Assembly (NCBI GenBank): GCA_046155535.1
Contig: JBJXFN010000155.1
Location: 635-64,634, forward strand
DNA from: Burkholderiales bacterium
GTDB taxonomy: Bacteria > Pseudomonadota > Gammaproteobacteria > Burkholderiales > JACQAP01
Direction of reading: 5' to 3'
Length of the DNA: 64,000 bases
Numbering within the stretch: the stretch's first letter is position 1; each line of letters begins with the position of its first letter. Positions 4,668-60,439 of this stretch are shown piece by piece. Made by a program: the position numbers and the translations under genes. The notes under the pieces are model-generated. The model saw nothing but the letters and a program-made list of their open reading frames with translations, did no database searches and was not told the DNA's origin.

Positions 4668-4679
4668 GGATCGAAGCGC

Positions 4680-41389: not shown

Positions 41390-43966
41390 TCAGGAACGCA
41401 GCCAACGCCACGCCAACGCAGACCGGCGCGCAGCGATGTCAATAAGAAAATACAATAAAGCCATCAGGGCAAACCCGGGCCACAGCCGGTGCGCAGTGTG
41501 ACTTCGGTCACCCTGCGAAGCGAAAATCTGCGCGGCATCGGCACCGCGCCTACCCCCGGTGTGTTTTGCCAAAGTGTCGAGCAATTCGAGGTCAGGAGGC
41601 CGAAAACGGTACTCATCCGCGTATTGGGCAGACAAATAGCGTGCGCCGGCGCGCGCGATCGAGGACGCACCTATGCCGGCAGAAGGCAACAACTCGAAAC
41701 CGGCCGTCGCCGCCGGACCCAGTGGAATCCTACCCACATAAGTTCCCGGTCCGCTTTGACGCAGCAACACCGTTTCGCGCACGCCATCGGCGCGGCTTAC
41801 CCGAATTCGCGGCGCCAGCGAATCCAGAAACTGTCCCTCCAGCGACAATGCCGAAAGGCTCATCAAAGCCAGGTCCCTTTGCCTCACCACGCGGAAATCC
41901 AGCCGTTCGCCTGAATCACGCCGCAATAATTCGCGAACCGTCTGTCCCCAGAGTTTTCCGAAACCTTTCCACTCCAGCCAGTTCACGGCCCAGCGACTGC
42001 TCGCATCGGAGGCAAACATCGCCACCTTGCCCAAACCGTACTGCCAGCGCGTCAGCACTGGAGAACCGGCGGGCGTCGTGAGCAGCACCTCGGCAGTATC
42101 CCGGGGTTTGGTACTCACGTAACCCTTGAGTTCTGGCAGGGCGTTCATGTCCAGCCCCTGAAAAACCTGGCTCTGGCGTGCCACCACCGGTTTGAAGGAT
42201 TCTTCCTGCAAATTGGAATGCACCGCCCGGCGGGTCTCCTCCACAAAGATCTGCGGAATGGCTTCCGCGCTCAACGTCACATAGGCGCGGCCCTTGCCCC
42301 ATCTGGCGATGTCGCTCATCAATCCCCGGTCTGCTCCTTCCCCGATCGCCACCGTCGAGACCACGATTTTTTCCGCGGTCATGCGTTTGAGCAGAGTCTC
42401 GAAGTCCGCCGGATGGGTATCACCGTCCGAGAGCAAAATGACATGCCGCGCCTTGGCATCGGATTTCTGCAGCAACCGGTACACAATCCCCAGCGCCGGA
42501 TAAATGTTTGTCTGGCCGCTGGCCTGGACGCGGCTGATCTGATCCTCGGCCTTGCGGCGCGAGCGAGCCGTCTGCATGGGTACTGCAATGTAGGGCTGCG
42601 AATCGAATGCCACCACGGCAAATTGGTGCTGCTCTTCCAACAGATCCAGCGCCGCGCGAGTGGCCTCCTTGGCCATTTCCACCTTGCGGCCCTTCATCGA
42701 ATAGGATCGATCCAATGCAATCACCAACGCAAGATCCTGGTGTTTTTCCCGCGCCTTGAACTGCACCGGGAGAATTTTTTCCGCCACAGTGCCGCTATAG
42801 CCCTTCTCGCCGAACACATTCTCGCCGCCGATAAACAACAGTCCGCCGCCATCGTCCCGCACGAATTTTTCGATCCGAATCATTGTCTCGACAGACAACG
42901 CCGCAGCGGGCACATCGCTCAGAATCAGGGCTTCGTATTCCGCGAACGCGTCAACCATGGCTTCCAGTTCCGCCGGCGCCGCCAGGTTCACCTGCATGCC
43001 TTCTGCCGTCAGTGCGTCGCGCAGAGAAACTGCGCGTTCCGGCTGGCTGTCCACCATCAAGACTCTGGCTTTCGCACCGACCCACACCTGCCGTTGCAGC
43101 TGGTTGTTGTCGGGCACTTTGTCCTGCGCAGAAGTCAGTTGCGCGCTGAGCATTGCCGGTCCGGGCTTGGAAATGCGCAGCTCGATTTCCACCGGATTGA
43201 ATCCCGGTTTGAGCGTGACGTTGCGCGCAGCCAGGGGTGTGCTGCTGTTCCGGATCAGGATACGCGCCCGGGTTTCCTGCGGCGCGAATACACGCACCGT
43301 AACGCTCATCGGCTCGCCGGCGCGTGATCCCTCCGGTACTGCGAAACCGTCCAGCCAGACATCGCCCTCGTCACGTACCCGGGCGGCAACCGGGTAGACG
43401 CGCACGCCCGCCTCTTGCAGTCGCGGCAACAATTGCCGGACTTCTCCCTCAGTCTGGTTGCCATCGGTCATCAACACCAGCCGTTTCACCCGTTCGCGGT
43501 CCAGGCCGAGCAAGGCCACCTCCACCGCCTGTTCCAGATTGGTGGCCGCCTGATCGAGCACACCGTCACGCCGCGCGCCTTCCGACACCGACAGCGCACG
43601 GATCGCATCGGGAGAGTCCACCATCACGGCGCGATCCGCAAATGCCAGGTAACGGGCACTGGCCGGTTGGTGCCGGCGATTCGATTCCTCCATCCATGTG
43701 AGTGCGGCGTCGATGAATTCGGAGGAAACGCTCCGCGACACATCCAGCGCATACACCACCGATACGTCGCTGGATTCCGTCAGCCATTGCGGTCGCATCA
43801 GCGCCAATGCCAGACAGGCAATGCCCAGCATGCGCAGTCCGGCCACAGTCTTCAAGTGCCGCGGCGACAGCGTGGTGTGGGTGTGTCGCGCGATCCACCA
43901 GGCAACAGGGATGGCCAGCAGCAACATGGCTGGCCATCCAGACTGAACGCTCAATGGCAGGTTCAT
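41390..43966 (-). CDS. large membrane-anchored VWA-domain protein with GATase1-like module (Bat-operon type)
   Basis: The ATG at 43966 overlaps the upstream stop (ATGA). It has N-terminal TM helices, a first VWA-like region (VVYALDVSRSVS), a GATase1-like segment (EALILSDVPA...GGGLLFIGGEN), a second VWA domain with a MIDAS motif (VIALDRSYSMKG...SGQTNIY...LLSDG) and a C-terminal TM segment. Confidence 0.8.
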   Translation of the reverse strand: MNLPLSVQSGWPAMLLLAIPVAWWIARHTHTTLSPRHLKTVAGLRMLGIACLALALMRPQWLTESSDVSVVYALDVSRSVSSEFIDAALTWMEESNRRHQPASARYLAFADRAVMVDSPDAIRALSVSEGARRDGVLDQAATNLEQAVEVALLGLDRERVKRLVLMTDGNQTEGEVRQLLPRLQEAGVRVYPVAARVRDEGDVWLDGFAVPEGSRAGEPMSVTVRVFAPQETRARILIRNSSTPLAARNVTLKPGFNPVEIELRISKPGPAMLSAQLTSAQDKVPDNNQLQRQVWVGAKARVLMVDSQPERAVSLRDALTAEGMQVNLAAPAELEAMVDAFAEYEALILSDVPAAALSVETMIRIEKFVRDDGGGLLFIGGENVFGEKGYSGTVAEKILPVQFKAREKHQDLALVIALDRSYSMKGRKVEMAKEATRAALDLLEEQHQFAVVAFDSQPYIAVPMQTARSRRKAEDQISRVQASGQTNIYPALGIVYRLLQKSDAKARHVILLSDGDTHPADFETLLKRMTAEKIVVSTVAIGEGADRGLMSDIARWGKGRAYVTLSAEAIPQIFVEETRRAVHSNLQEESFKPVVARQSQVFQGLDMNALPELKGYVSTKPRDTAEVLLTTPAGSPVLTRWQYGLGKVAMFASDASSRWAVNWLEWKGFGKLWGQTVRELLRRDSGERLDFRVVRQRDLALMSLSALSLEGQFLDSLAPRIRVSRADGVRETVLLRQSGPGTYVGRIPLGPAATAGFELLPSAGIGASSIARAGARYLSAQYADEYRFRPPDLELLDTLAKHTGGRRGADAAQIFASQGDRSHTAHRLWPGFALMALLYFLIDIAARRSALAWRWLRS

Positions 43967-45726
43967 ACCGTCAGGCGGCGATTCCAGGACCACCACTCGA
44001 AAATCAAGGCAATGGCAGCCGCCCACAACAGCAAGATCCAGGGATCGGTTTTTTCCCAGGTGCTGAACGGCTTGCCCGACGCCGCTGCCGATTCCGCAGC
44101 CAGCGAAGTTCGATTGACTCCGGTGATATCGCCGTCCAACAGACTCGCGGTGAACAGCGCGCGGCGCTGCCCGCTGACGGCGGAATACAGTCCCGGCGAC
44201 CCAATTTCGAACGCCGTGCCGTCCGGTACTGCCGTTGTCGACAGCATGCTCCCGTCGGCAGCTTGCACCTTGGCGTCAGGAAAAGGCACTTCGGCCCGGC
44301 CCAACCGCGCGGCCAGCGTTTCGTTCTCGCCAGTCAGCCAGGTCAGGGCATTGTCCACAAACACGGGAAAACCTGCGTGTAGCGCGAAGTTCGAGTCTCC
44401 AAGGCCAAAAGCCAACCAGATTTGACGCGGAAAGGAATCCTGCGCGATGACAAGCGGCATGCCGCGCCGGGCGCGAATCAGCGAGAATTCCGTGGGGTTG
44501 CTCACCACAGCGCGATCGATCACCAACTCTCGCAAAACTAAATTCGCCAGCAAAGGATGCGCAGCCTCCCAGGACTCCGGAACAGGTGCCACGATTTCCG
44601 CGCCGGCTGGGGGCAACCACGCGGCGTTACCGGGCCGGAACAGCAAGGCCGGCGCACGTGGCCGTCTCGAAGGCGCAAATCGATCAAATATCCAGACGTC
44701 GATGTCATCGCGATCCGCGTAAGCCTCCAGCGAGAGGACTTGCAGTCGTACCTGGTGCCGGGCGCGCAAGGATTTTTCGAGATACGCGTTGGCTGCTCCC
44801 ACCAGTCCGACGCGCACGACTCTACTCGCCTGCCGCACCGCGTAGGCCACATCATCCACCGACAAGGCATCCCCAGGCATGCGCAGCGACGCCTTTAGCG
44901 GCCCGGCCTCAAAACCCGACACGTCAATCTGGACATGACCGGTTCGTCCGGCAGGAACCTGCAAGGATTTTTCGGACTGCCGACCACCCAACCCAGTCAA
45001 AATCACCTCGATGGTTTTTGCGGTCCCACCGGCATTGGCAATCTCGACGTAAGCGAGTTGGCGGCGCGGATCGCCCGGTACCGCGCGCACCTCGAATGCG
45101 ACGATGCCGCTGTTTTCGACCGCCTCGAACACCGATTCGACTTTCGCCGACTGCGGCACGCCCGTCAGGCGAACCCCGTCGGTGAATACAATGGTTTCAG
45201 TGTCCGCCATCGGGGCCAATTCCGGCACCCGGGGCCGATCACCGAAGGACGTCGTCAGCGACTGCATACGGGCCAGCGCCGCATCCCGCTCCTCGAAGGA
45301 AGGGATCGCAATCCGCCGCATGCTGTCTGCAATCATCACCGCAGTCGCCGCGGGCCGCTCTCGCAGCAACGCATCAGCCCTCGCCAGTGCATGGTCCCAA
45401 CGCGTCACACCATCGGTACGAAGTGTTGCCATGGTCGCGGAATTGTCCAGGATCAGGATCAGGCGCTGCGCACCACCCGCCCCTGGGCGGACAGATGGCC
45501 AATGCGCGAGCGCAGATGCCATGGCGGCGGCAATCAACGCGCTCAGAAGCAGCGAGAGCCACCAGCGCAGGCGGTCTGACCCGGCATGACTTTTCCGCAA
45601 CACCCGATCCCAGATGAGCATCGATGAAACCGCAAGCTGGCGCGGTGGCGGTTTGAGCCAATACAGCAGCAACACCACCATTGCCGCCAGAGCCGACAGC
45701 AACCCCGCCAAAGCTGGCAAGCTCAT
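43963..45726 (-). CDS. BatA-N-terminal-domain / VWA-like membrane protein
   Basis: The ATG at 45726 overlaps the DUF58 stop (ATGA). The N-terminus LLSALAAMVVLLLYWLKPPPRQLAVSSMLIWD is the aerotolerance-regulator N-terminal pattern. It also has ILILDNSATM and a C-terminal TM segment (PWILLLWAAAIALIFEWW). Confidence 0.75.
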   Translation of the reverse strand: MSLPALAGLLSALAAMVVLLLYWLKPPPRQLAVSSMLIWDRVLRKSHAGSDRLRWWLSLLLSALIAAAMASALAHWPSVRPGAGGAQRLILILDNSATMATLRTDGVTRWDHALARADALLRERPAATAVMIADSMRRIAIPSFEERDAALARMQSLTTSFGDRPRVPELAPMADTETIVFTDGVRLTGVPQSAKVESVFEAVENSGIVAFEVRAVPGDPRRQLAYVEIANAGGTAKTIEVILTGLGGRQSEKSLQVPAGRTGHVQIDVSGFEAGPLKASLRMPGDALSVDDVAYAVRQASRVVRVGLVGAANAYLEKSLRARHQVRLQVLSLEAYADRDDIDVWIFDRFAPSRRPRAPALLFRPGNAAWLPPAGAEIVAPVPESWEAAHPLLANLVLRELVIDRAVVSNPTEFSLIRARRGMPLVIAQDSFPRQIWLAFGLGDSNFALHAGFPVFVDNALTWLTGENETLAARLGRAEVPFPDAKVQAADGSMLSTTAVPDGTAFEIGSPGLYSAVSGQRRALFTASLLDGDITGVNRTSLAAESAAASGKPFSTWEKTDPWILLLWAAAIALIFEWWSWNRRLTV

Positions 45727-46700
45727 CGCAACAATCCCTCTTCCCGCAAGGTCTTGAGCAACAGTTCCTCCAGAGGCGAGGTGGTGGACCCGCGCAGGTA
45801 TCCCCAACCGTGGATGCGGCAGAATGCTTCGATTTCGGTGCAGTACTGTTGAAAAGAATCCCGATAGTCCTGAATCAGTCCGGGAGTAACGCGCACGCGC
45901 CGCGCGCCACCGTCCTCGGCATCCACCAACAACACCTCGTCAGCAAGATTCGGAGAAACTTCGTCCGGACTGACCACATGAACGGCAAACACATCGTGAC
46001 GGAATCGCCGGATTTCCTGGAAACTCTGCTCGAATCCTTGGCGATCGAGAAAATCCGAAATCACGATGACCATTCCGCGGGCTCGACGTGCGCCGAAGTA
46101 GCCGCGAAATGCAGTTTGGAGGCTGGTGCCGCCGGCGCAGGCCATGCGCTCCAGAAAACGCAGAATGCGCCAAACCTGATTCTTGCCCCGGGCCGCCGGC
46201 ACTTCGCGCACTGCCCCGTCTGCAAACGCCACCAGACTCACGCGATCATGGTTGATCAGGCTGATATAGGAGAGCGCGGCGGCAAGCCGTCGGGCGAAAT
46301 CAAATTTCGACGGGGAGCCGAATTCCATGGATCGGCTGACATCGAGAAAGACATACATCGGCAGGTCCGCCTCCTCCTCGAAGAGCCGCAGGATCAGTCG
46401 GTCCAGGCGCAGGTAGCTGCCCCAATCCAGATTACGGGTATCGTCGCCGGCGGAATAAGGACGGTAGTCGGTAAAAATCATTCCCGTGCCGGTGCGCCTG
46501 GAGCGGTGATGCCCGCGCAGGTGCCCGGCAACCGGCCGGCGAGTCAACATCGCCAGATGCTCGAGCTGGCGAAGGAAGGCTTCGCTGAAAAGCAGATTCT
46601 CTGGAACCAAAAAGTACCGCCTCAGTGGGACTGCGCTGTCAGCGGACGCGCGGCCGGTTGATTCACGTTGTTGTCGTTGTTCCGCGGCGGCGCCGCGCAA
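45723..46700 (-). CDS. DUF58 domain protein
   Basis: GHHRSRRTGTGMIFTDYRPYSAGDDTRNLDW...VFLDVSRSM is the DUF58 signature. The start is uncertain (TTG at 46700). It lies immediately downstream of the MoxR gene. Confidence 0.85.
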   Translation of the reverse strand: MRGAAAEQRQQRESTGRASADSAVPLRRYFLVPENLLFSEAFLRQLEHLAMLTRRPVAGHLRGHHRSRRTGTGMIFTDYRPYSAGDDTRNLDWGSYLRLDRLILRLFEEEADLPMYVFLDVSRSMEFGSPSKFDFARRLAAALSYISLINHDRVSLVAFADGAVREVPAARGKNQVWRILRFLERMACAGGTSLQTAFRGYFGARRARGMVIVISDFLDRQGFEQSFQEIRRFRHDVFAVHVVSPDEVSPNLADEVLLVDAEDGGARRVRVTPGLIQDYRDSFQQYCTEIEAFCRIHGWGYLRGSTTSPLEELLLKTLREEGLLR

Positions 46701-46721
46701 CCCGTGTCTGCAAAAGCCCCG

Positions 46722-47720
46722 TCAGCCGCCGGACGGCTCGGCCACCGACTCCAACACCTTGCGTACGATGTGATCCGTGTCGATGCGTTCGGCTTCGGCC
46801 TCGAAATTCAGCAAGACCCGATGCCTGAGCGCGGGCAAGGCGACGGCGCGAATGTCCTCGCCGGCAACGTACACGCGGTTATTGATCAGTGCATTGACCT
46901 TGGCACCCAGAATCAACGCCTGCGCACCACGCGGGCTGGGACCGAAACGCACGAATCGTTTTGCCATTTCATGCGCCTCGCCCGTCTCCGGGTGCAGGGC
47001 CAGCGTGATCCGGATTGCGTAATCCTGCACCGGCACCGCAATCGGCACGGCGCGGGCGATTTCGCGCATCTCGAGAATCTGCCCCTGCTCCAGTACCCTC
47101 TTGACCTCGGGTTCCTTGCGTTGCGTGGTGCGTTCCACAATTGAATGCAATTGCTTCTTATCCGGGAAATCGAGTTTGAGCTTGTAGAGAAAACGGTCCA
47201 TTTGCGCTTCAGGAAGAGGATAGGTGCCTTCCATTTCGATCGGGTTCTGGGTAGCGAGGACAAAAAACGGCTGGTCCAGCGTATGGGTCTGCCCGGCTGC
47301 CGTGACGCTGTTTTCCTGCATTGCCTCCAGAAGCGCCGACTGGGTCTTGGGAGTCGCGCGATTGATTTCATCGGCCAGCACCATGTTCGCAAAAATCGGC
47401 CCGCGCTGGAATTCAAAGGCCTTGCGACCGGCCGCGTCTTCCCTGACGATGTTGGTGCCGACGATGTCCCCGGGCATCAGGTCGGGCGTGAACTGGATGC
47501 GCGAGAATTTCAGGTGCAACACATCGGCCATGGTCTGCACGAGTTTGGTTTTTCCCACCCCGGGTATCCCCTCAAGCAGCACATGACCGCGCACCAGCAG
47601 GCAGGCCATGACGCCGGAAACGATGTCCTCGTTGCCGACAATGACACGCCCGATCTCCTCCCTGACACGAAGGAAGCGTTCTCGGAAATCGTGAATCTGG
47701 CGCTCGGCGACGGCATTCAT
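46722..47720 (-). CDS. MoxR-family AAA+ ATPase
   Basis: 332 aa. Walker A GIPGVGKT, Walker B LADEINRA, and the characteristic QNPIEMEGTYPLPEAQMDRF. Confidence 0.95.
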   Translation of the reverse strand: MNAVAERQIHDFRERFLRVREEIGRVIVGNEDIVSGVMACLLVRGHVLLEGIPGVGKTKLVQTMADVLHLKFSRIQFTPDLMPGDIVGTNIVREDAAGRKAFEFQRGPIFANMVLADEINRATPKTQSALLEAMQENSVTAAGQTHTLDQPFFVLATQNPIEMEGTYPLPEAQMDRFLYKLKLDFPDKKQLHSIVERTTQRKEPEVKRVLEQGQILEMREIARAVPIAVPVQDYAIRITLALHPETGEAHEMAKRFVRFGPSPRGAQALILGAKVNALINNRVYVAGEDIRAVALPALRHRVLLNFEAEAERIDTDHIVRKVLESVAEPSGG

Positions 47721-49327
47721 TTGTTTTCACTTTCATGCAGGTTTAAGAAGTATTCCTTGACGGCTGCCCGGTGCCGCATCGGCAGCGGCGCGTGGCGCAC
47801 CACGCCCGCGCGCTCAGCCTCGCCGCGGGCAGCCACGGCCTGGAAAGACAGGTCTGATTTCTGCTCGGCACTGGCGGAAAAAAACCAGCCCTTGTCGCCG
47901 GAAGCGTCTTCGTCGCCGGATTCTTCCTCTCGCCCGGGAATCACTTCGCGCTTTAATTGCGCCTCCAGCCTGGGCGTTGCCGCGCCCTCCAGCGGGAGGG
48001 CTTCAGAATGACCCGATGCACTGCCGGCCCGGGACCCTTCGTGTTGGGCATCGTCCTTTTCCTTCGCCATGGCGGCCTGTCTGAAAAGCGTACCGCCTTG
48101 CAAGTCGGCATTGCCGGTGTCCGGCGACGGGGTCGGATTCGGTGGGTTTGCCCGCATGCCAAATTGATTTGCAGTCAAGGCGCTGCGCTGCGAAGTCGCC
48201 ACCAGATTGTCTTCCAACATCCGCCGGCGAATGCGATTGACCTGTTCCTGGGCATCGAGTTTCTTTGCGGACTCCTCGATCGTATCAAGCAGTTTGGCAA
48301 CCGTGTCCTGGTTCATCTTGACGTCAACGCCTCGCAAATCGTGTCCGACTTTCTCGAATTCCGGATCGCCCTCCGCTGCGCCCTTGTCAGCCGATCGGAA
48401 GTTCTCGTCCCGGGAATCCTGATCGGCATCCGTGCCGATTGACGGTTCGCCTTGCATTTTTTCGATCAATGCCTGTGCCTTGCGGGCATCGCCTTTTTCC
48501 AGCGCGTCCGCCACCTGCGACCAGCGAGCGTCGGATTTCAGCGTCCGGGCAATACGCGCCAGCTCTTCGCGCGCCATCGCGCCTTCCATGCCGGCCTGAT
48601 CCGCGGCTTCCCGTGCCAACGTGGCGGCCTGCCGGGTTTCTTCTGTCGTGGCACCGCGGTCCTGGAGTACCCGCAACGCCTGGTCGAGTTTACGCAATGC
48701 CCCGTCCGCAGGGGCATCGTCCGGAATCTCGCGCAATTCCCGGATGCCAGCCTCGTCTTCGGCCGTCTGCACAGGGGCGCCATCGCGCAATGGCAGCATG
48801 GGCGGCCCGACCCATGCCATCCCCCACAGTAAGGCGCCAAGACCTGCGGCTAGAAATAGCGTGCCGGGAATATGGCCCGGCACCACCAGGCACGGATCGA
48901 GTCTGCGCGCCGCCGATGCGGCCCGCGCCAACTGCAATGCACGCAGTCCGTCGGAGCGTCCCGCGGAAAGAAAATCACACGCCGATTTCAGCTCATCCTT
49001 GAGCCCGGCGCGCGCGTCGGCTTCGTCGGCCGCCTGGACCGCACTCACCGGCCGGGAAACTCTCCAGGCCACACATGCCGTCACGATCGCGCCAGCCAAC
49101 ACGGGCAACCAGACTGCATTCAACCCGGCCGAAGAAAAAGACCCTGCAGGATGCAGGATGTGAGAGGCCAACACCGCCGATAGAACCACACAGACACCGA
49201 AGGAAACCTCTTCGACCGTCCGACGGAGCCACAATCGTCTGGCGATTGTGCGAAGTACGCCATGGATTAGCGCCGTGCCCGCCGACTCGGTACTGCCCTC
49301 CTTCGGGATTGTGTTTTCGCTTCTCAT
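47717..49327 (-). CDS. membrane protein, first gene of the MoxR operon (DUF4175-like, tentative)
   Basis: 536 aa with two or three TM segments near the N-terminus, a long charged coiled/low-complexity region, and a C-terminal PLPMRHRAAVKEYFLNL motif resembling the P.eYr..v..YF ending I recall in Bat-type operon partners. The stop overlaps the MoxR start (ATGA). Confidence 0.6.
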   Translation of the reverse strand: MRSENTIPKEGSTESAGTALIHGVLRTIARRLWLRRTVEEVSFGVCVVLSAVLASHILHPAGSFSSAGLNAVWLPVLAGAIVTACVAWRVSRPVSAVQAADEADARAGLKDELKSACDFLSAGRSDGLRALQLARAASAARRLDPCLVVPGHIPGTLFLAAGLGALLWGMAWVGPPMLPLRDGAPVQTAEDEAGIRELREIPDDAPADGALRKLDQALRVLQDRGATTEETRQAATLAREAADQAGMEGAMAREELARIARTLKSDARWSQVADALEKGDARKAQALIEKMQGEPSIGTDADQDSRDENFRSADKGAAEGDPEFEKVGHDLRGVDVKMNQDTVAKLLDTIEESAKKLDAQEQVNRIRRRMLEDNLVATSQRSALTANQFGMRANPPNPTPSPDTGNADLQGGTLFRQAAMAKEKDDAQHEGSRAGSASGHSEALPLEGAATPRLEAQLKREVIPGREEESGDEDASGDKGWFFSASAEQKSDLSFQAVAARGEAERAGVVRHAPLPMRHRAAVKEYFLNLHESENK

Positions 49328-52146: not shown

Positions 52147-52422
52147 TTATTTCACCGTATCGATGATCTCGATTTCCGTGCCACGGGTACCGACGCTGAC
52201 CACCGCGCTGCTGCTGGTCAAGTCGCCCGGCATGAGCGTGGTCTTTCCGTTGCGGGATATGCAGGCAAACACAATCATCCATTTTGCATTATCGCCGGCA
52301 CGATTTCGAAGGCCGACGCGGACTCCACCCGGAATTTCGGTATATTTGCACTTGCGAAACTCATCCGACCTTGGCGGACAAACATGGCATCCCGATTCAG
52401 CATCAAATATTTTGCCTCCCAC
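52147..52422 (-). CDS. hypothetical small protein (weak; start uncertain)
   Basis: 91-aa ORF with a GTG start. Its C-terminal half looks protein-like (MIVFACISRNGKTTLMPGDLTSSSAVVSVGTRGTEIEIIDTVK). Its 5' end overlaps the start of the 52384 gene on the other strand, so the true start, if the gene is real, is probably internal. Confidence 0.25.
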   Translation of the reverse strand: MGGKIFDAESGCHVCPPRSDEFRKCKYTEIPGGVRVGLRNRAGDNAKWMIVFACISRNGKTTLMPGDLTSSSAVVSVGTRGTEIEIIDTVK

Positions 52423-52704
52423 GACGCGCTCGGCATGGTGTCAGAAGAGGAATACCAGCGATTCAAGGAAGAACTGCTCGAAGCCATTCAAGATGAATGG
52501 CCGGATGCGGCGGTTTCCATCGACGACGATGAAGAGGCCTATGCGGATATCAGCGGACTGAGTGGCCAGGCAGAAAAGGACGTGCATGACCGGCTGGAGG
52601 ATATCGTCAGCGAAGTCATCGACTCAGGAAACTGGCAGGAAGAAGAAGAAGAGTTCTACGAAGAGGAAGAAGAGTCCGGAATCGAAGGCGAAGAGGATCG
52701 CTGA
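52384..52704 (+). CDS. highly acidic hypothetical protein
   Basis: 106 aa with consistent coding-like codon usage and a poly-E tail (NWQEEEEEFYEEEEESGIEGEEDR). I recognise no family. Confidence 0.55.
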   Translation: MASRFSIKYFASHDALGMVSEEEYQRFKEELLEAIQDEWPDAAVSIDDDEEAYADISGLSGQAEKDVHDRLEDIVSEVIDSGNWQEEEEEFYEEEEESGIEGEEDR

Positions 52705-52726: not shown

Positions 52727-52790
52727 TGGTAAGCCTGGTTGGAATCTAACCAACGACCGATTGATCGTGAGACCGAAGCTCGGGAAAAAC
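52727..52790 (-). repeat. decayed direct copy of the 3' part of the tRNA-Ile(CAU) gene (att-like island boundary)
   Basis: Hand alignment of 52727 onward (TGGTAAGCCTGGTTGGAATCTAACCAACGACCGATTGATC) against 60363 onward (TGGTGGGCCTGGTTGGGATCGAACCAACGACCAAAGGATT) gives 28/32 identities over the first 32 nt and 32/40 over 40 nt, in the same orientation. Confidence 0.6.
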
Positions 52791-53272
52791 AAGAACTCTG
52801 GGGAATAAACGAGCACACCACTAACTGGTGAAGCGGTGTTCAAGATTCTCAGCGACTCCTACCAGTTCCAGATTTTCCTCGATGAGTGTGATAACAGTGT
52901 GCCGGGGTGCCGGGCCATTTGAGTCTAGGCCATAGCGCGACTCGCGTTGACGCCCAGACTTACTCCTAATTTCCCGCGCGTTGACCAATTTCACAGCGTA
53001 GAAAAAGCGCTCCCGCTTTGCCCTGGGCGCCTCGTCCGCACCCGCCCACCCACTTGTCCTCGCGCCCCGAGCAGCCTTCGCGACTGCTTATCGAGCCCCA
53101 TCCGACCCCCTCCGGCCCTCACTAGAGTCCTCCCGCCGGGCGTGGTACAGATCAATTTCTCTCCTTCCATATTTAGTCCATAAAAACATTAGTCTATTTG
53201 TTATTTTTGAAAACCTTAGAGTAAGTTCACCCGGATATCCATCGACCCCATAACAAATAAGTTGTGTTTCTT

Positions 53273-53324
53273 GTCTCCGTTTGGAGACAATGCTGTTATC
53301 CTACCGTCTCCGTTTGGAGACAAT
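53273..53324. promoter_or_regulatory. two identical 19-nt copies of a palindromic site GTCTCCGTTTGGAGACAAT, 33 bp apart
   Basis: Copy 1 is at 53273-53291 and copy 2 at 53306-53324. Each contains the inverted repeat GTCTCC-GTTT-GGAGAC (extended to TTGTCTCC/GGAGACAA in copy 1). They lie about 205-255 bp upstream of the island operon. Confidence 0.4.
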
Positions 53325-53529
53325 TGGTAAGGGCCAAATAAGAGCCAACAAGCAGTCATAAGCAGTCAAGAAAGCTAAAAAAAGGATTTCGCTGAAGCTC
53401 AGTAATTGTTTGACGACGTGGGGGCATTGCGAGCATCGCTCATAAAGTTGGTGCTGGAACGACAAAAATTCTCGCGGGCACTGCACATGATGCGTGTTTG
53501 GTAGTGGTTTTAGAAATGGGAGGAAGGCG

Positions 53530-53931
53530 ATGAGCGAATCAAGGGCACTCTATCGTGCTTCTCGCAAGGAAGTCGCGAGCAGAAGGTCGGTGAACGCAAC
53601 ATTACTTCGCGCACATTTACCTGATCGTTCGTCTGATGGCACGCACAACGTGCCGTTCCTCACATTCTTCGAAGATGCACGCAGACCTGCAGTTATGCAT
53701 GCAGCCCATGTACCGCGTTTTTCTCTCTCCACGACAACATTGGCCGTGAACGATAACGAGGGGGCATCGCTTGGCCCGATTAGGGTGTTACGGCAGCTCA
53801 ACGGAGAAAAGTCGACATCCTCATTGCAAAGCAACCGCTGGGGCGCGACCAAAAAAGCAGGATTAAAAAAGTTTGGCGGGAAATTTGGACACAAACGTAT
53901 TGAACCAATTTCAGGGGTGCAGCAGCGATGA
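53530..53931 (+). CDS. hypothetical protein, first ORF of the island operon
   Basis: The ATG at 53530 is preceded by GGGAGGAAGG, and the stop overlaps the start of the giant gene (ATGA at 53928-53931). 133 aa, basic, with no motif I recognise. It appears less GC-rich than the downstream genes. Confidence 0.4.
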   Translation: MSESRALYRASRKEVASRRSVNATLLRAHLPDRSSDGTHNVPFLTFFEDARRPAVMHAAHVPRFSLSTTTLAVNDNEGASLGPIRVLRQLNGEKSTSSLQSNRWGATKKAGLKKFGGKFGHKRIEPISGVQQR

Positions 53932-56900
53932 TCGACTCACATGATTTCTATCGTTCTAAACCGGACCATCAGCCGCACCAAATGGCAGACAGGGTTACTG
54001 CAGCGAGCGACTCGGGGTTGAAGGCGCGCAGAAATTTGCCTGTGCTGAACTCGACCACCCGGCTGTTGAGCGTTGTGTTGGCAGGCATCGTTGCCTCCGG
54101 GTGCGGTGGTGGCAACGAGCCTGACCCATCCCAGGCCGCCGATGCGCAGCACGTGGGCGCGATCTCGGCGCTGGCGATCGCCGCGCCGTCGCAATCGGTC
54201 TGGTCGCCGCGCTACACGCTGCCGCTGGTGCCCACCACCGCGGCCAACCTGCCCGACGGCAAAGTGCTGGTCTGGTCGGCGGAGGAGCGCTTTTCCTTCG
54301 GCGCCAATGTCGGCCGCACCTACACCGCCACCTTCGACCCGGCCACCGGCACGAGCACTGAACGCACCGTCACCGAGAGCGGGCACAACATGTTCTGCCC
54401 GGGCACCACCAACCTCGCCGACGGCCGCCTGCTCGTCAACGGCGGCATCAGCAGCGCACGCACCAGTATCTTCGATCCCGCCGCCGGTACCTGGACCAGC
54501 GCGGCCAACATGAACATCGCACGCGGCTACAACGCCAACACAATCCTGGCCGACGGCTCGGTGTTCACGCTCGGCGGCTCATGGAGCGGTGGTGTCGGCA
54601 ACAAGCACGGCGAAATCTGGACCGAAGCCGGTGGCTGGCGCCGCATGAGCGGCATCCCGATCGACTCGATGCTATCCGTGGACACGAGCCGCAATTTCGG
54701 CGGCGACAGCCACTTCTGGTTGATCCCCACCGGCCATGGCCGCGTGCTGCACGCCGGCCCCGGTGTCAAAATGCACCTGATTGACACGCGCGGCAACGGC
54801 GCCGTGCAGCCGATGGGACTGCGCGGCGACGATCAGTTCAGCGTGAGCGGCACCGCAGTGATGTACGACATCGGCAAGGTGCTCAAGATCGGCGGAACGC
54901 CCGGCTACGAGGGATTCGACGCCAACGCCAACGCCTACGTCATCGACATGGGTGCCGGCGGCGTTGCGGTGCGCAAGCTCGCGCCGATGAACTACGCGCG
55001 CGTGTTCCACAACACCGTGGTGCTGCCCAACGGCCAGGTCGTGATCATCGGTGGCCAGACGCGTGCCAACGCCTTCACCGACAACCGCTCGGTGCTGGCC
55101 GCCGAGCTGTTCGATCCGGTCACGGAAACCTTCACCGTGCTGCCGGCGATGACAGTGCCCCGTAACTACCACAGCTCGGCACTGCTGCTGCCCGACGCGC
55201 GTGTGATGTCCACCGGTGGCGGGTTGTGCGGGGCAGGCTGCGCCGCGAACCACCCGGACGTCGAGATTCTGTCGCCGCATTACCTCTTTAACCCCGATGG
55301 CACACCGGCCACGCGCCCGGCACTCACCGCCGCGCCGACGCAGGCTGCGCACGGCACGTCGATGACAGTGGCGACCAATTCGCCGGTCACCGCGTTCTCG
55401 CTCGTGCGCATGAGCTCGACGACGCACACCGTCAACAACGACCAGCGCCGCATTCCGTTGGTGTTCAGCACCACCGGCCCCAATACCTACTCGGTGCAGG
55501 TGCCGAGCAACACCGGCGTTGCCCTGCCCGGCCTGTACATGCTGTTCGCGATGAATGGCGACGGCGTACCCTCGGTCGCGCGCATCGTTCGCATCGGCTC
55601 GACCAACACGCCGAAGCTGGTGTGGCCGGGCGACCAGAACACGACTGTCGGCGGCGCCGTCGCGCTGACGCTGGCCGCACCCGGCGCAGCGAGTTTCAAC
55701 GCCAGCGACCTTCCGCCGGGCTTGAGCTTGAACACCGCCACCGGCGAGATCAGCGGCACGACCACGGGCGAGGGGCTGTACGACGTCACCGTCTCGGCGA
55801 GCAACGCCAGCGGCACCGTCAGCACGCAAATGCTGTGGCGCGTGACACAACCGGGCAACCCGCGCTTCGTACGGCTCGAGTCGCTGTCCGAGGTCAACGG
55901 CCAGCCCTGGGCGTCGATGGCCGAGTTCAACCTGCTCGACGACAACGACAACACGCTACCGCGCACGGGTTGGGTGGCCAGCGCCGACAGTGCCGAGTTG
56001 GTCGGCCAGAACGGCGCCGCGGTCAATGCGCTCGACGGCAACGTCGCGACGATCTGGCACACGCAGTGGCAGGCCGCGAGCCCACCGCATCCGCACTGGT
56101 TCAGCGTCGACATGGGAGGAACCGCGCGCCTGGGCGGCTTCCGCTACACGCCGCGCACCGACTCGCCCAACGGCGCGATCGCGCTGTTCCGTTTCTACGT
56201 CTCTACCGACGGCATCAACTGGGGCTCGCCGGTGGCCACCGGCGACTTCCGCACGATGGGCGCCACCGCCGCCGAGAAAACCGTGCGATTCTCGCTCGCG
56301 CTGCCCAACCGCGCGCCGTCGATCGCCACGCCAGTCGCGCAGTCGAGCACGCAGGGCCAGGCCCTCACCCTTGCGCTGCAGGCCAGCGACCCGGACGGCG
56401 ACGCGCTGAACTGGAGCGCCAACGGCCTTCCGCCGGGCCTTTCGTTGGGCATCGGCAACGGCATGGTCAGCGGCACGCCGACGACCAGCGGTAACTTCAA
56501 CGTCAGCGTCACGGTGCAGGACAGCCGAGGCGCCAGCGCCAGCACGAACTTCGTCTGGACCGTGCTCGCTGCACCGACCGTCATCAACCCGGTACCGGTG
56601 GCACCTGCCACGACCGGCAGCGACGTGACATTTACGGCGAGTGCCACAGGCAGCCTGCTCGAGTACGCTTGGGATTTCGGTGACGGCACGCAGGTCACGC
56701 CGTACTCGTCGTCGCCGACGGCTTCACATCGCTACGTCGACCCGGGCCTGTACAACGTAACGCTGAATGTACGCGCCAGCGACGGCCGCATCACGAGCAT
56801 GGTGTTCGCCCAGGCGATCACCAGCGGGGTGACCGCCATGCAGCCAGTCGCCTCATCCAACATCGTTCTTGAGCCGCGCAGCGGCTCCAACGCGCAGCTG

Positions 56901-59147
56901 TGGGTCGCCAACCCGGACAACGACACGGTCAGCGTCTTCGACGCGGTAACCAACGCCAAGCTGGCGGAGATCGCCGTCGGCGTCGGGCCGCGCACGCTGG
57001 CGGTCGGCGCCGCCAGAGTCTGGGTGGCCAACCGCGACGGTGCGAGCCTGAGCGTCATCGACACAACGTCGCTCGCGGTAACGCAGACGATCGCGCTGCC
57101 CCGTGCATCGATGCCCTACGGCATTGCGTTCTCGCCGGCCGACGGCTCGGCCTGGGTCGCTCTCGAAGCTACCGGCCAACTGCTGCGACTGAGCGCGGCT
57201 GGCGCCGTCACCGGCACGGTTGCAGTCGGCCCGAACCCGCGGCAGGTGTCGATCAGCGGCGACGGCGCGCGCGTGCTTGTCTCGCGCTTTGTCACGCCGC
57301 CGCTGCCGGGTGAAGCCACGGCGGCAGTGCTGACCGCGGGTCGCGGCGGCGAGGTGGTGGTGGTCGACGCGGTCACGCTCGCGCCACTGACCACGACAAT
57401 GCTGGCGCACAGCAACAAGCCCGACAATACGATCCAGGGCCGCGGCGTGCCGAACTACCTCGGCGCGGCGGTGATCTCGCCCGACGGCGCATCGGCCTGG
57501 GTACCGTCGAAACAGGACAACGTGCTGCGCGGCACGCTGCGCGACGGGCAGAACCTCGACTTCCAGAACACGGTGCGCGCGATCAGCTCGCGCATCAACC
57601 TGGCGACGCTGACCGAAGACCAGCCCGCGCGCATCGACCACGACAACGCCAGCGTCGCCAGCGCAGCGGTCTTCCACCCGAGCGGCGCCTACCTGTTCGT
57701 CGCTCTGGAGACGAGCCGCCAGGTGGCGGTGGTCGACGCTTACGGGCGGCGCGAGGTGATGCGCTTCGATGCCGGTCGCGCCCCACAAGGCGTCGCAGTG
57801 TCGGCCGACGGCCTGCGCCTCTACGTCAGCAACTTCATGGACCGCAGTGTCACGGTGCACGACTTGTCTCGCCTGGTGCAGTTCGGTGAGTTCAACGTGC
57901 CGCTTGTGACAACGCTTGGCTCAGTGGCTAACGAGCGTCTCACGGCGCAGGTGCTGTTGGGCAAGCGCCAGTTCTACGACGCACGCGACCCGCGCCTTGC
58001 GCGCGACAGCTACATGAGCTGCGCCTCCTGCCACCGCGACGGCGGCAGTGACGGCCGGGTCTGGGACCTCACCGGCTTGGGCGAAGGCCTGCGCAACACG
58101 ATCGAGTTGCGCGGTCGCGCCGCGATGGGCCACGGCCCCCTGCATTGGAGCGGCAACTTCGACGAGTTGCAGGACTTCGAGGGCCAGATCCGCGCACTGG
58201 CGCAGGGCACCGGCCTGATGACGGATGCGCAATTCAACACCGGCACACGCAATCAGCCGCTCGGCGACCGCAAGGCGGGTGTCAGCGCTGACCTCGACGC
58301 GCTGGCGGCGTATGTGGCATCGCTGTCAAGCTTCGCGCCGAGCCCGTTGCGCAATCCTGACGGCACGCTGACGACCGGCGCGGCGGCAGGCCGAACGGTC
58401 TTCGCTGCGCAATGCGCCTCCTGCCACTCGGGCAGCACGTTCACCAACAGCACGCTCGGCGCGCTACCGAACATCGGTACGCTCAAGGCCTCGTCGGGCA
58501 TGCGCCTGGGTGGCACGCTCGCCGGCATCGACCCGCCGACGCTGCGGGACGCCTGGCAGACCGCGCCCTATCTGCACGATGGCTCGGCCGCAACGATTAG
58601 CGCTGCGATCGCTGCGCACAATAACGTCGCTCTCAGTGCGACGCAGCTGGCGCAGGTTGCGGAGTTTGTCATGCAGATCGGCAGCGAGGAACCTGCGGTG
58701 GCCTCAACAGCCAGCGGCGGGCTGGCCGGCAGCTACTTCAACAACCTCACGCTAGCCGGCACGCCAGCAATGGCTCGCATCGAGGTCGTGGACTTCGGCT
58801 GGGGCTCGGGCTCGCCCGGTATCGGCGTCGGCACCAACAACTTCTCGGCGCGCTGGACCGGCGGCGTGATGGCCACTACCACCGGCGCCTACCGCTTCCG
58901 CACCATCAGCGACGACGGCGTGCGCCTGTGGGTCAACGGCGTGCAGGTCATCAACAACTGGACCGACCACGGGGCCACGACCAACACGTCGGGCACGGTC
59001 AACCTCGTCGCCGGCCAGCGCTACGACATCCGGCTCGAGTACTACGAACGCAGTGGCAAGGCCGTTATGCGGCTGCTCTGGCAAGCGCCGGCCAGCGCCA
59101 CCTATGTCACGATTCCCGGTACCGCTCTGTTCCCGGCGCCACCATGA
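53928..59147 (+). CDS. 1739-aa multidomain lipoprotein: galactose-oxidase-type Cu-radical oxidase + Ig-like/F5-8C/PKD modules + YVTN beta-propeller + di-haem cytochrome c peroxidase domain + PA14
   Basis: Uninterrupted ORF with a lipobox VASGC (Cys59). The alternative start M19 is at 53982. It carries galactose oxidase cofactor and ligand motifs (NMFCPG, ARGY, HFWL, NYHS, STTHTVNNDQRRIPL), two CASCH haem motifs (58020 and about 58413), TAPYLHDGS, and a PA14-like C-terminus (FSARWTG...YRFRT.SDDGVRLWVNG...). Domain map is in the findings. Confidence 0.9.
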   Translation: MIDSHDFYRSKPDHQPHQMADRVTAASDSGLKARRNLPVLNSTTRLLSVVLAGIVASGCGGGNEPDPSQAADAQHVGAISALAIAAPSQSVWSPRYTLPLVPTTAANLPDGKVLVWSAEERFSFGANVGRTYTATFDPATGTSTERTVTESGHNMFCPGTTNLADGRLLVNGGISSARTSIFDPAAGTWTSAANMNIARGYNANTILADGSVFTLGGSWSGGVGNKHGEIWTEAGGWRRMSGIPIDSMLSVDTSRNFGGDSHFWLIPTGHGRVLHAGPGVKMHLIDTRGNGAVQPMGLRGDDQFSVSGTAVMYDIGKVLKIGGTPGYEGFDANANAYVIDMGAGGVAVRKLAPMNYARVFHNTVVLPNGQVVIIGGQTRANAFTDNRSVLAAELFDPVTETFTVLPAMTVPRNYHSSALLLPDARVMSTGGGLCGAGCAANHPDVEILSPHYLFNPDGTPATRPALTAAPTQAAHGTSMTVATNSPVTAFSLVRMSSTTHTVNNDQRRIPLVFSTTGPNTYSVQVPSNTGVALPGLYMLFAMNGDGVPSVARIVRIGSTNTPKLVWPGDQNTTVGGAVALTLAAPGAASFNASDLPPGLSLNTATGEISGTTTGEGLYDVTVSASNASGTVSTQMLWRVTQPGNPRFVRLESLSEVNGQPWASMAEFNLLDDNDNTLPRTGWVASADSAELVGQNGAAVNALDGNVATIWHTQWQAASPPHPHWFSVDMGGTARLGGFRYTPRTDSPNGAIALFRFYVSTDGINWGSPVATGDFRTMGATAAEKTVRFSLALPNRAPSIATPVAQSSTQGQALTLALQASDPDGDALNWSANGLPPGLSLGIGNGMVSGTPTTSGNFNVSVTVQDSRGASASTNFVWTVLAAPTVINPVPVAPATTGSDVTFTASATGSLLEYAWDFGDGTQVTPYSSSPTASHRYVDPGLYNVTLNVRASDGRITSMVFAQAITSGVTAMQPVASSNIVLEPRSGSNAQLWVANPDNDTVSVFDAVTNAKLAEIAVGVGPRTLAVGAARVWVANRDGASLSVIDTTSLAVTQTIALPRASMPYGIAFSPADGSAWVALEATGQLLRLSAAGAVTGTVAVGPNPRQVSISGDGARVLVSRFVTPPLPGEATAAVLTAGRGGEVVVVDAVTLAPLTTTMLAHSNKPDNTIQGRGVPNYLGAAVISPDGASAWVPSKQDNVLRGTLRDGQNLDFQNTVRAISSRINLATLTEDQPARIDHDNASVASAAVFHPSGAYLFVALETSRQVAVVDAYGRREVMRFDAGRAPQGVAVSADGLRLYVSNFMDRSVTVHDLSRLVQFGEFNVPLVTTLGSVANERLTAQVLLGKRQFYDARDPRLARDSYMSCASCHRDGGSDGRVWDLTGLGEGLRNTIELRGRAAMGHGPLHWSGNFDELQDFEGQIRALAQGTGLMTDAQFNTGTRNQPLGDRKAGVSADLDALAAYVASLSSFAPSPLRNPDGTLTTGAAAGRTVFAAQCASCHSGSTFTNSTLGALPNIGTLKASSGMRLGGTLAGIDPPTLRDAWQTAPYLHDGSAATISAAIAAHNNVALSATQLAQVAEFVMQIGSEEPAVASTASGGLAGSYFNNLTLAGTPAMARIEVVDFGWGSGSPGIGVGTNNFSARWTGGVMATTTGAYRFRTISDDGVRLWVNGVQVINNWTDHGATTNTSGTVNLVAGQRYDIRLEYYERSGKAVMRLLWQAPASATYVTIPGTALFPAPP

Positions 59148-59566
59148 GCAGGCGCGGTTGCGTGCTGGCGCTGGTGGCCGTCGCTGCAGGCGCAGCCGAC
59201 GCAGCCAGCCCGCCCAGTGCGGAGCGTGGCCGCCGGCTGTTCGTCGGCGAGGCAACGCTATCCGCGCGCATCGTCGGTCAGGACTTCGTGTTGCCGGCGC
59301 AGGCCAACCGCTGCATCAACTGCCACGGGCCGGCGGCGGCAACGGCCGGCGCATCGGCAACGGCAGCGCCGCCACTTTCGGCAACGACGCTGGCGCAACC
59401 ACGGCGGCGCCGCGGCGGACCGCCGTCGCGTTACGACACGGCCACGCTGTGCACGCTGCTGCGAAGTGGCGTCGATCCGGCCCATGTGATGATCGACCGC
59501 ACCATGCCGCGCTATGAAATCACCGATGATGAGTGCCGTTCGTTGTGGCTGCATCTGAACCGATGA
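59144..59566 (+). CDS. periplasmic monohaem c-type cytochrome-like protein
   Basis: The ATG at 59144 overlaps the giant gene's stop (ATGA). It has a signal peptide (MSRRGCVLALVAVAAGAADA) and a single CxxCH (CINCH). Confidence 0.65.
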   Translation: MSRRGCVLALVAVAAGAADAASPPSAERGRRLFVGEATLSARIVGQDFVLPAQANRCINCHGPAAATAGASATAAPPLSATTLAQPRRRRGGPPSRYDTATLCTLLRSGVDPAHVMIDRTMPRYEITDDECRSLWLHLNR

Positions 59567-60141
59567 ACACACGACGCAGATTGCTCACCCTGCTCGCGTC
59601 CCTATTTACGCCGCACGCAATGGCGCAGACCGCGGCCACGCCATCGCACGAGCCGTTTGGCCCCGTGCGACCGCCGCTGCCCGCGCCGAAGCTGACGCTA
59701 ACCGGCGAGGACGACCGACGCTTCGAACTCGGCGCTCGCCTGCGCGGCCGCATCAGCGCTGTGCAGTTGATGTTCACCGGCTGCAGCGCCACCTGTCCGA
59801 TCCAAGGTGCGCTGTTCGGCGCGCTGGCGCCGTTGGTAGCAGACCATGCAGAGTGGCAGCTGCTCTCGCTGAGCATCGATCCGCTCGGCGACAGCCCGCG
59901 GGCACTGCGTACCTGGCGCGCGCGCTTCGCAACGAATGCCAACTGGCTTGCCGCAGTACCGCGTGTCGAGGAGGTTGATCGGCTGCTCGACTTTCTGCGA
60001 GGCCGCGCCCAGGGCGCGGACCGGCACACCGCGCAGATCTACCTGTTCGACCGTCAGGCACGACTCGCCTACCGCACTGCGGACATGCCGCCGGCGCGTT
60101 TCGTTGCCGATCTGATGAACGAACTTTCGCAGCTGCGCTGA
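59563..60141 (+). CDS. SCO1/SenC-family copper chaperone / thiol-disulfide protein
   Basis: The ATG at 59563 overlaps the upstream stop (ATGA). It has a twin-Arg-containing N-terminus (MNTRRRLLTLLASLF), the thioredoxin-fold motif FTGCSATCP (CxxxC) and a distal His (DRHTAQIYLFD). Confidence 0.85.
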   Translation: MNTRRRLLTLLASLFTPHAMAQTAATPSHEPFGPVRPPLPAPKLTLTGEDDRRFELGARLRGRISAVQLMFTGCSATCPIQGALFGALAPLVADHAEWQLLSLSIDPLGDSPRALRTWRARFATNANWLAAVPRVEEVDRLLDFLRGRAQGADRHTAQIYLFDRQARLAYRTADMPPARFVADLMNELSQLR

Positions 60142-60362: not shown

Positions 60363-60439
60363 TGGTGGGCCTGGTTGGGATCGAACCAACGACCAAAGGA
60401 TTATGAGTCCTCTGCTCTAACCGGCTGAGCTACAGGCCC
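60363..60439 (-). tRNA. tRNA with CAU anticodon, most likely tRNA-Ile2 (lysidine-modified)
   Basis: The reverse complement GGGCCTGTAGCTCAGCCGGTTAGAGCAGAGGACTCATAATCCTTTGGTCGTTGGTTCGATCCCAACCAGGCCCACCA folds by hand into a cloverleaf: 7-bp acceptor, GCTC/GAGC D stem, GAGGA/TCCTT anticodon stem, CTCATAA loop, GTTGG/CCAAC T stem, encoded CCA. It has C4-G69 and C5-G68, and its variable/T region resembles E. coli ileX more than elongator tRNA-Met. Confidence 0.85.

Follow-up and report, generated by a model that had tools for sequence, protein, structure and literature searches.

A window of 64,000 nucleotides from a Burkholderiales bacterium (GenBank assembly GCA_046155535.1, contig JBJXFN010000155.1, positions 635 to 64,634 of the forward strand; "the window" refers throughout to this whole stretch) carries a gene for a single lipoprotein that joins a complete copper-radical oxidase (CRO) to a di-haem module of the cytochrome c peroxidase (CCP)/MauG superfamily. 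Re-reading of the open reading frames (ORFs) bears out a single, uninterrupted ORF, which from its gene overlaps is predicted to be the first of a three-gene operon that also codes for a cytochrome c and a Sco-type copper chaperone. A first-pass annotation of the DNA had proposed the fusion and listed the modules between and after its two enzymatic parts, and Pfam and NCBIfam profile searches recover every one of these domains. The same architecture recurs in many other bacteria, and the window protein is typical of a large family, spread widely across phylogeny, for which no description was found; the novelty lies in the family and not in the window. The features of the locus are listed in Table 1, with residues numbered from the start of the maximal ORF at 53928.

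Table 1. Features of the fusion gene, its partner genes and the ends of the surrounding islet (window coordinates).
Feature	Coordinates	Strand	Details
Degenerate copy of tRNA-Met 3' half	52727..52781	- (same orientation as tRNA-Met)	55 nt, 76% identity; other end of islet
Fusion gene, maximal ORF	53928..59147	+	1739 codons plus stop, uninterrupted
Predicted lipoprotein signal peptide, (M)LNSTTRLLSVVLAGIVASG followed by Cys	54042..54104	+	Lipobox Cys is ORF residue 59; GGG follows
CRO catalytic unit, seven-bladed kelch plus GO-like E-set	54180..55598	+	Residues ~85-557; Pfam, PDB alignments
First Ig-like (He_PIG / PPGLSL) module	55605..55862	+	Residues ~560-645; Pfam
F5/8 type C (CBM32-like) module	55863..56297	+	Residues ~646-790; Pfam 64.5 bits
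Second Ig-like He_PIG module	56307..56567	+	Residues ~794-880; best Pfam stretch 797-879
PKD domain	56580..56822	+	Residues ~885-965; Pfam 75.7 bits
YVTN-type beta-propeller	56823..57902	+	Residues ~966-1325; NCBIfam TIGR02276 73.5 bits
Di-haem c domain, CCP/MauG superfamily	57903..58703	+	Residues ~1326-1592
PA14 domain, C-terminal	58716..59102	+	Residues ~1597-1725; Pfam 102.9 bits
Partner 1, exported mono-haem cytochrome c	59144..59566	+	140 aa; start overlaps fusion stop (ATGA)
Partner 2, SCO1/SenC copper chaperone	59563..60141	+	192 aa; start overlaps cytochrome c stop (ATGA)
tRNA-Met (CAT)	60363..60439	-	Bounds the high-GC three-gene islet

Domains, start codon and integrity of the fusion gene

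The N-terminal catalytic unit is recognized by the Pfam models GO-like_E_set (PF09118; 80.9 bits) and Kelch_6 (55.5 bits), and a score of 25 bits with Glyoxal_oxid_N (PF07250), under its cut-off of 37.5, is compensated by end-to-end alignment with solved structures. Two He_PIG modules (80.9 bits) lie on either side of the F5/8 type C module, which among solved structures is closest to residues 465-561 of the Micromonospora-type bacterial sialidases 1w8n/1eut (E 4e-20), and the PA14 domain matches that of RsgI3 (6qe7; E 5e-51) in a PDB sequence search. The di-haem domain scores 34.5 bits with CCP_MauG (PF03150; cut-off 25.6), in a match that spans only positions 2-76 of the 149 in the profile, and Pfam also matches Cytochrom_C/RoxA-like in the protein. 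Signature motifs lie where they were originally placed, with WDFGDG at 915, PPGLSL at 596 and 835, TAPYLHDGS at 1545, and the two CASCH haem motifs at 1365 and 1496.

The true start is most likely not the ATG at 53928 but the GTG at 54042, because the N-termini of homologues and the 1,701-aa product of the gene caller (P0001) agree on it; the product would thus be 1,701 aa long. The closest homologues begin about 21-23 residues ahead of the lipobox Cys, with the consensus M..TRLL...LAAC followed by GGG, and the Cys (ORF residue 59, as first assigned) is residue 21 of the precursor when counted from the GTG. The stop of a 145-aa ORF (53494-53931) overlaps with the 53928 ATG, and neither Pfam nor NCBIfam gives a match for it; this ORF is probably spurious and not a gene, since the fusion gene most likely starts downstream of it. 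Scans for promoters and terminators were uninformative.

The lipobox pattern is matched in 87 of the 120 best-matching homologues, and this conservation points to a lipid-anchored protein; the window lipobox, VASGC, has Gly at +2. Attachment of c-type haem needs passage through the periplasm, and the cytochrome c and Sco partners, with their signal peptides, suggest that the fusion enzyme faces that compartment. The protein could still be displayed at the surface after haem attachment, as lipoprotein multihaem cytochromes such as MtrC/OmcA are known to be, and its glycan-binding modules fit either location.

The chance that so long an ORF is an artefact, either an assembly chimera or neighbouring genes joined by a sequencing error, can be regarded as negligible. 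More than 100 homologues with the full architecture come from independent assemblies and isolates, among them 15 (P0002-P0016) that are 73-81% identical over 95-98% of the query and have the architecture at full length; domain order is kept in 119 of the 120 homologues, and GC content is uniform at 66-70% along the ORF. No evidence was found in favour of an artefact, and the concern raised in the first-pass annotation, that a frameshift or chimera might split the ORF, is answered by these independent full-length homologues and the uniform GC content.

The oxidase and the propeller-di-haem unit

In PDB sequence searches, residues ~80-557 match the "galactose oxidase" structures 9g43/9g8h end to end (E 3.5e-166), and Fusarium galactose oxidase (GalOx; 1gof) aligns end to end with residues ~85-557 (E 1.6e-135). 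By alignment, Cys157 (NMFCPG) and Tyr201 (ARGY) correspond to the Cys228-Tyr272 cross-link pair of GalOx, and Tyr414/His415 (NYHS) and His500 (STTHT) to its Cu ligands Tyr495, His496 and His581; all five are invariant in 119 of 119 homologues. These assignments agree with the residue map first proposed, except that the map had taken Trp264 (HFWL) as the equivalent of the stacking Trp290. In the numbering of mature GalOx, the HMMER alignment with 1t2x pairs Trp264 with GalOx Trp336 and places the Trp290 equivalent at Trp219 in GGSWSGG, which is W in 117 of 119 homologues. Also retained are GalOx Phe194, Tyr405 and Phe464.

The residues of the copper-radical cofactor are thus complete, but the galactose pocket is not kept. 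GalOx Arg330 is replaced by Gly258 (G in 84 and R in 27 of 119 homologues) and Gln406 by Glu328 (D or E in 89 of 119); because neither is conserved, galactose specificity is unproven and not to be assumed, and the original galactose-oxidase label does not hold as a statement of specificity. The NCBIfam model for GlxA (NF052501) gives 149.9 bits against an equivalog cut-off of 800. Fusarium GalOx (AA5_2) and the window protein share the Cys-Tyr pair, the stacking Trp and the Cu ligands, but the CBM32-like module is C-terminal of the catalytic domain here and N-terminal in GalOx, and the window protein is a bacterial lipoprotein with about 1,150 extra residues, including two c-haems.

The second enzymatic part is a unit of PKD domain, propeller and di-haem domain, and throughout the family the PKD domain is almost always immediately N-terminal to the propeller. 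AlphaFold2 modelling of residues 966-1592 (pLDDT 86.8, pTM 0.90) predicts about 28 propeller strands, which can be read as seven blades, and in Foldseek searches the best matches of the modelled propeller are to a YVTN propeller from an archaeon and to hydrazine synthase beta (5c2v_B, TMt 0.77, rmsd 3.2), which by sequence, too, is its closest solved relative. The propeller is rich in family-invariant residues, for example R1172-L1178 and K1195-N1198. In the di-haem domain, haem 1 corresponds to CASCH 1365-1369 (nt 58020-58034) and haem 2 to CASCH 1496-1500 (nt 58413-58427); both CxxCH motifs and the PYLHDGS motif are invariant in the 120 homologues, as is Trp1407, which lies in an invariant HW[ST][GA]NFDE motif and aligns with the inter-haem W of FWDGR in 3o5c.

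His1564 (nt 58617-58619), invariant in 120 of 120 homologues, occupies the position of the Met ligand of bacterial cytochrome c peroxidases (bCCPs), with which it aligns without gaps from the PY(F/L)HDG motif in 1iqc, 3o5c and 1zzh. Match coordinates with 3orv (query 7-39 versus chain residues 266-298) place it at MauG position 294. A bis-His haem 2 is therefore probable, as read from these alignments. The window module has in common with bCCPs (3o5c, 1iqc, 1eb7), MauG, MbnH and BthA two CxxCH motifs with similar spacing logic, the PxLR...PY(L/F)HDGS motif, a Trp between the haems and, where the Ca site aligns, an Asn; where bCCPs have Met and MauG has Tyr as sixth ligand, it has His1564. Identity as a canonical bCCP or MauG is rejected on the basis of this His and of equivalog scores that fail. 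Of the first description as a di-haem cytochrome c peroxidase, the two-haem CCP/MauG module stands and the canonical peroxidase, with its Met ligand, does not; the module is a CCP/MauG-superfamily di-haem unit behind a propeller and a member of no characterized family.

By sequence, the di-haem domain is closest among solved structures to hydrazine synthase gamma (5c2v_C, E 2.2e-12). Modelled alone, the domain is poor (pLDDT 60.4), and its Foldseek matches, of which 5c2v_C is the best (E 6.8e-3) and bCCPs follow, are all weak; they are therefore consistent with the sequence result and give it no independent support. The order of propeller then di-haem domain is that of the NCBIfam beta-gamma fusion model of hydrazine synthase (Kuenenia stuttgartiensis, 5c2v), but scores with the hydrazine synthase models are 62.1 against 1250 (NF052342) and 48 against 625 (NF052341), there is no alpha subunit gene in the window neighbourhood and no anammox context, the cross-linking Cys of haem gamma-I is unaligned in what is an uncertain alignment, and the unit is fused to a copper oxidase. 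With scores far under the family cut-offs and the alpha subunit absent, the likeness to hydrazine synthase is one of fold and module order.

Family distribution, operon partners and genomic context

A scan of species-representative genomes, with one genome per species, gave at least 572 confirmed loci, so that the architecture is common and not peculiar to the window. The 80 best loci, which were kept for mapping, are from Burkholderiales (Rhizobacter, Methylibium, Variovorax, Rhodoferax, Ideonella, Rubrivivax, Aquabacterium, Sphaerotilus, Burkholderia, Undibacterium and Janthinobacterium) and further from Methylophilaceae, Steroidobacteraceae, Methylococcaceae, Pseudomonadales, Polyangiales, Acidobacteriota and Verrucomicrobiota; the closest homologues of the window protein are in metagenome-assembled genomes (MAGs) of uncultured Burkholderiales and betaproteobacteria. 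CRO and CCP_MauG Pfam domains occur together in all 120 best matches, and segment-wise BLAST finds a constant core of CRO, [Ig-CBM]n, PKD, propeller and di-haem domain, with PA14 or CBM32 modules in varying number behind it, in 119 of them. There are hundreds of such proteins in public genomes, annotated generically as "discoidin/PA14 domain-containing protein" or "YVTN family beta-propeller protein". Full-text literature searches found no publication on a CRO-cytochrome fusion, in agreement with the initial impression that no protein of this architecture is characterized, and the superfamily network of the BthA paper makes no mention of propeller or oxidase fusions.

Eighty-four loci were mapped (the 80 best and four others obtained beforehand, with one contig represented twice), and in nearly all untruncated ORFs the PKD-propeller-di-haem unit is in the same ORF as the CRO. 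Across phyla the unit is 52-83% identical to that of the window, whereas the CRO ranges from 29% to 86% and falls into two types: type A is 55-86% identical to the window CRO and has CBM32/PA14 inserts, and type B, with Pfam Glyoxal_oxid_N, Kelch and GO-like_E_set domains, is 29-40% identical. A search with the propeller-di-haem unit among 1.84 billion cluster representatives (50% identity) returned 1,410 clusters at E <= 1e-30; a CRO is upstream in 113 of the best 150, and fragments seem to account for many of the other 37. The strongest sign of the two parts working together is that the haem unit, the most conserved part, stays attached to divergent CROs, and functional coupling is strongly suggested.

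There are several variations on this organization. In Variovorax rhizosphaerae (L003, JBBKZT010000014.1, 2218-21835) there are three tandem full-length fusion paralogues of 1,871, 2,048 and 2,027 aa, with a cytochrome c and Sco pair after the second and a 149-aa ORF beginning after the third. The Verrucomicrobiota fusions at L073, L075 and L081 (about 4000-5000) are much longer, at 2,200-3,300 aa, and a distant (25-28%) extra di-haem gene directly upstream replaces the cytochrome c/Sco pair. In Rhodoferax koreense (L002, CP019236.1, 7285-21358) the fusion gene is flanked by HbpS-like, hemP, exbBD and TonB-dependent receptor genes.

The partner cytochrome c carries, besides a signal peptide, the haem motif CINCH and an MPRY motif, and scores 20 bits with Cytochrom_C, just under the cut-off of 21.3; its orthologues keep C(I/V)NCH, RRGGPPSRYD, MPRY and two further Cys. 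The Sco partner scores 34.7 bits with PF02630 (cut-off 22.8), and CSATCP (CxxxC) and the conserved His are kept in 27 orthologues. Its N terminus (59563-59650) begins MNTRRRLLTLL and is twin-arginine-like, with the first two Arg of RRR kept in most of the 27, which suggests that it may be exported by the Tat system. The trio is adjacent in 22 of the 26 type A loci with enough flanking sequence and recurs in the closest relatives (P0002, P0010), in V. rhizosphaerae and in a Polyangiaceae MAG. In the last of these (L004, 1-7209) it is directly 3' of exopolysaccharide genes coding for Wzy_C, a GNVR/tyrosine-kinase-type co-polymerase and a glycosyltransferase, a setting which hints that in some lineages the enzyme acts on polysaccharide made by the cell itself. 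The idea that the whole family has a cytochrome c partner is rejected; the partner occurs only in the close branch, type A.

In the window the trio occupies an islet of about 7.6 kb, with 66-70% GC inside and about 51-63% in the flanks. The contrast in GC, the tRNA-Met and its partial copy at the two ends, and the different flanks in the closest relatives, where the trio lies between uvrD-like and patatin genes instead, suggest that the islet moved horizontally; this is likely rather than shown, because there is no integrase and the repeat is degenerate. The tRNA is the sole match in an Rfam scan. Upstream of the fusion gene, ~52780-53500 is AT-rich and apparently non-coding and contains the perfect palindrome GTCTCCGTTTGGAGAC twice (53273-53288 and 53306-53321, 33 bp apart), which could be an operator pair or a mobile-element remnant. 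Just outside the islet, the product of ORF 52352-52704 ends in a small tail that is extremely acidic, EEEEEFYEEEEESGIEGEEDR. Further upstream (41390-49327, minus strand) are several large ORFs, among them MoxR-type AAA ATPase and DUF58 genes; the loci of the closest relatives also carry MoxR and DUF58 genes, in a different arrangement.

Proposed role and its alternatives

The reading that we favour, and to which we give about an even chance, is that the protein is a self-contained unit for oxidation and peroxide handling, in which H2O2 made by the CRO is consumed by the propeller-di-haem unit with electrons from the cytochrome c. Bacterial peroxidases and hydrazine synthase gamma, the two nearest relatives of the di-haem module, are understood to work reductively with electrons supplied externally, which fits a cytochrome c donor. 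The catalytic steps, the direction in which electrons flow, the substrate and the compartment are our inferences, built on the domains, residue invariance, operon and linkage observed. After Sec export and lipidation, Sco would deliver copper to the CRO and the Cys157-Tyr201 cross-link would form, while the CBM32-like and PA14 modules may hold the enzyme on a glycan. The CRO would then oxidize a primary alcohol, or a related group, on the bound glycan and reduce O2 to H2O2, which the PKD-propeller-di-haem unit would take up at haem 1 (Cys1365/Cys1368/His1369). Electrons from the co-encoded cytochrome c would pass through the putative bis-His haem 2 (Cys1496/Cys1499/His1500/His1564), so that peroxide is turned to water on site, and an oxidizing intermediate of the haem may, in addition, maintain the active Cu(II)-tyrosyl-radical form of the CRO.

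Several observations weigh against this proposal. About 800 residues separate the CRO from the haems. At the sixth-ligand position His1564 stands in place of the Met of the Nitrosomonas, Shewanella and Rhodobacter peroxidases, and the distal Gln/Glu of peroxidases is unmatched in the HMMER pairwise alignment with 3o5c, in a loop that aligns poorly and where the AlphaFold2 model is of low confidence; peroxidase chemistry is for these two reasons putative. The NCBIfam peroxidase, MauG and MbnH models all score far under their cut-offs. At type B loci, the commoner type, a small CxxCH gene is adjacent in 0 of 35 and a Sco-like gene in 13 of 35, so that a cytochrome c donor is not universal, and the R. 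koreense fusion is without both partner genes. There are also PKD-propeller-di-haem units without a CRO, although these are rare among the mapped loci: one is fused to Laminin_G_3/ConA-like and Ig domains (L076, 6060-10685), and another is a stand-alone 856-aa protein beside a Sco-like gene and a type B fusion (L065, 1439-4009). The unit can therefore work in other contexts.

The existence of such CRO-free units is among the points that would fit a different view, in which the propeller and di-haem domain form an enzyme of their own, like hydrazine synthase beta-gamma, acting on another substrate or on the product of the CRO; examples would be the use of H2O2 as co-substrate in oxidizing a C6-aldehyde or attacking another polymer, or the reduction of a small N- or O-oxide. 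Its closest solved relatives are hydrazine synthase gamma and beta, with a weak match to the beta-gamma fusion model, the unit is better conserved than the CRO, and the invariant patches in the propeller are dense. Against this, the alpha subunit and anammox context of hydrazine synthase are absent, the gamma-I cross-linking Cys is unaligned (again with the alignment uncertain), and the sequence names no candidate for a second substrate; we consider this view unlikely, if the least unlikely of the alternatives. A more specific form of it, which we hold to be slightly less likely still, is that the PKD-propeller-di-haem unit is a free-living relative of hydrazine synthase beta-gamma repeatedly welded to CROs, giving a two-step extracytoplasmic machine with peroxide as co-substrate. 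If this were true, the CRO would yield aldehyde and H2O2 at the bound glycan and the haem unit would go beyond mere detoxification, driving aldehyde to uronate or the cleavage or cross-linking of a polymer; the family would then be a new class of bacterial "auxiliary activity" enzyme and would throw light on where the anammox hydrazine synthase module came from.

The haems might instead be wiring for a dehydrogenase, carrying electrons together with the cytochrome c from reduced Cu to the respiratory chain in place of O2, as in quinohaemoprotein alcohol dehydrogenases or cellobiose dehydrogenase and with little or no H2O2 formed. Translational coupling of the cytochrome c gene to the fusion, a predicted bis-His haem 2, typical of electron-transfer haems, and the conserved linkage of CRO and haem module all agree with such wiring, but the haem module belongs to a catalytic superfamily and is not a simple cytochrome domain, O2 is the acceptor of all characterized CROs, and transfer would be uphill, as the Cu(II)-Tyr radical/Cu(I) couple is of high potential and bis-His haems are usually low. 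It would also leave a large, conserved propeller without a role, and overall we find it improbable. Least probable of the functional readings, and one that we rate as quite improbable, is a MauG-like maturase, with H2O2 serving the di-haem domain to build or repair a cofactor made from protein residues, be it the Cys-Tyr cross-link or another modification, in the CRO or a partner protein, as the first-pass annotation had suggested as its own alternative. The module is in the CCP_MauG superfamily and has weak matches to the MauG and MbnH models, and MbnH, a MauG-like enzyme, is linked to copper homeostasis (description of 6e1c). The MauG model TIGR03791, however, gives 39.5 against a cut-off of 443.85. 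The Tyr294 that MauG needs for its bis-Fe(IV) state is an invariant His here, and the Cys-Tyr cross-link of GalOx forms by itself with Cu and O2.

Consumption of CRO-made peroxide by a haem partner, the reading we favour, has analogues in two characterized systems. In Streptomyces lividans, GlxA is a bacterial, membrane-associated CRO whose maturation depends on the Sco chaperone and on the haem peroxidase DtpA, and DtpA, a dye-decolorizing peroxidase (DyP), consumes its H2O2 (PMC4736821). CRO, Sco and haem module are likewise together in the window, in one predicted operon, but the haem partner is a fused c-type di-haem/propeller unit and not a separate DyP, no cslA-like glycan synthase gene adjoins, the host is Gram-negative and the protein has a lipobox. 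In Colletotrichum and Magnaporthe, a peroxidase encoded beside the CRO switches it on, oxidizing it by one electron to give the Cu(II)-radical state, the partners need close contact, and CROs generally need horseradish peroxidase (HRP) in vitro (PMC9770985). The CRO of this Perox-AlcOx pair is thus genetically locked to a haem peroxidase, but the pair consists of two separate secreted proteins, with a class II b-haem peroxidase and activity on long-chain cuticular alcohols; the haem partners are not homologous, and the likeness is an analogy of logic. By this analogy, the window system is best seen as a fused, c-haem variant of a known CRO-peroxidase-Sco partnership.

CROs are prized as biocatalysts, and those characterized are almost all fungal. 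They have long been noted to need a peroxidase for sustained activity, and their own H2O2 inactivates them. In the literature checked, GlxA was the sole characterized bacterial CRO to surface. The need for a peroxidase is met in fungi by a co-regulated peroxidase gene and in Streptomyces by DtpA and Sco, and the fusion family would mean that many Gram-negative soil and freshwater bacteria hard-wire the CRO-haem partnership into one polypeptide, with a quite different haem module. The family is worth experimental follow-up: it would let the control of a CRO by its haem partner be tested in a natural, self-contained system, might yield oxidases for biocatalysis that need neither HRP nor catalase, and would give a handle on the role of the non-anammox relatives of hydrazine synthase beta-gamma.

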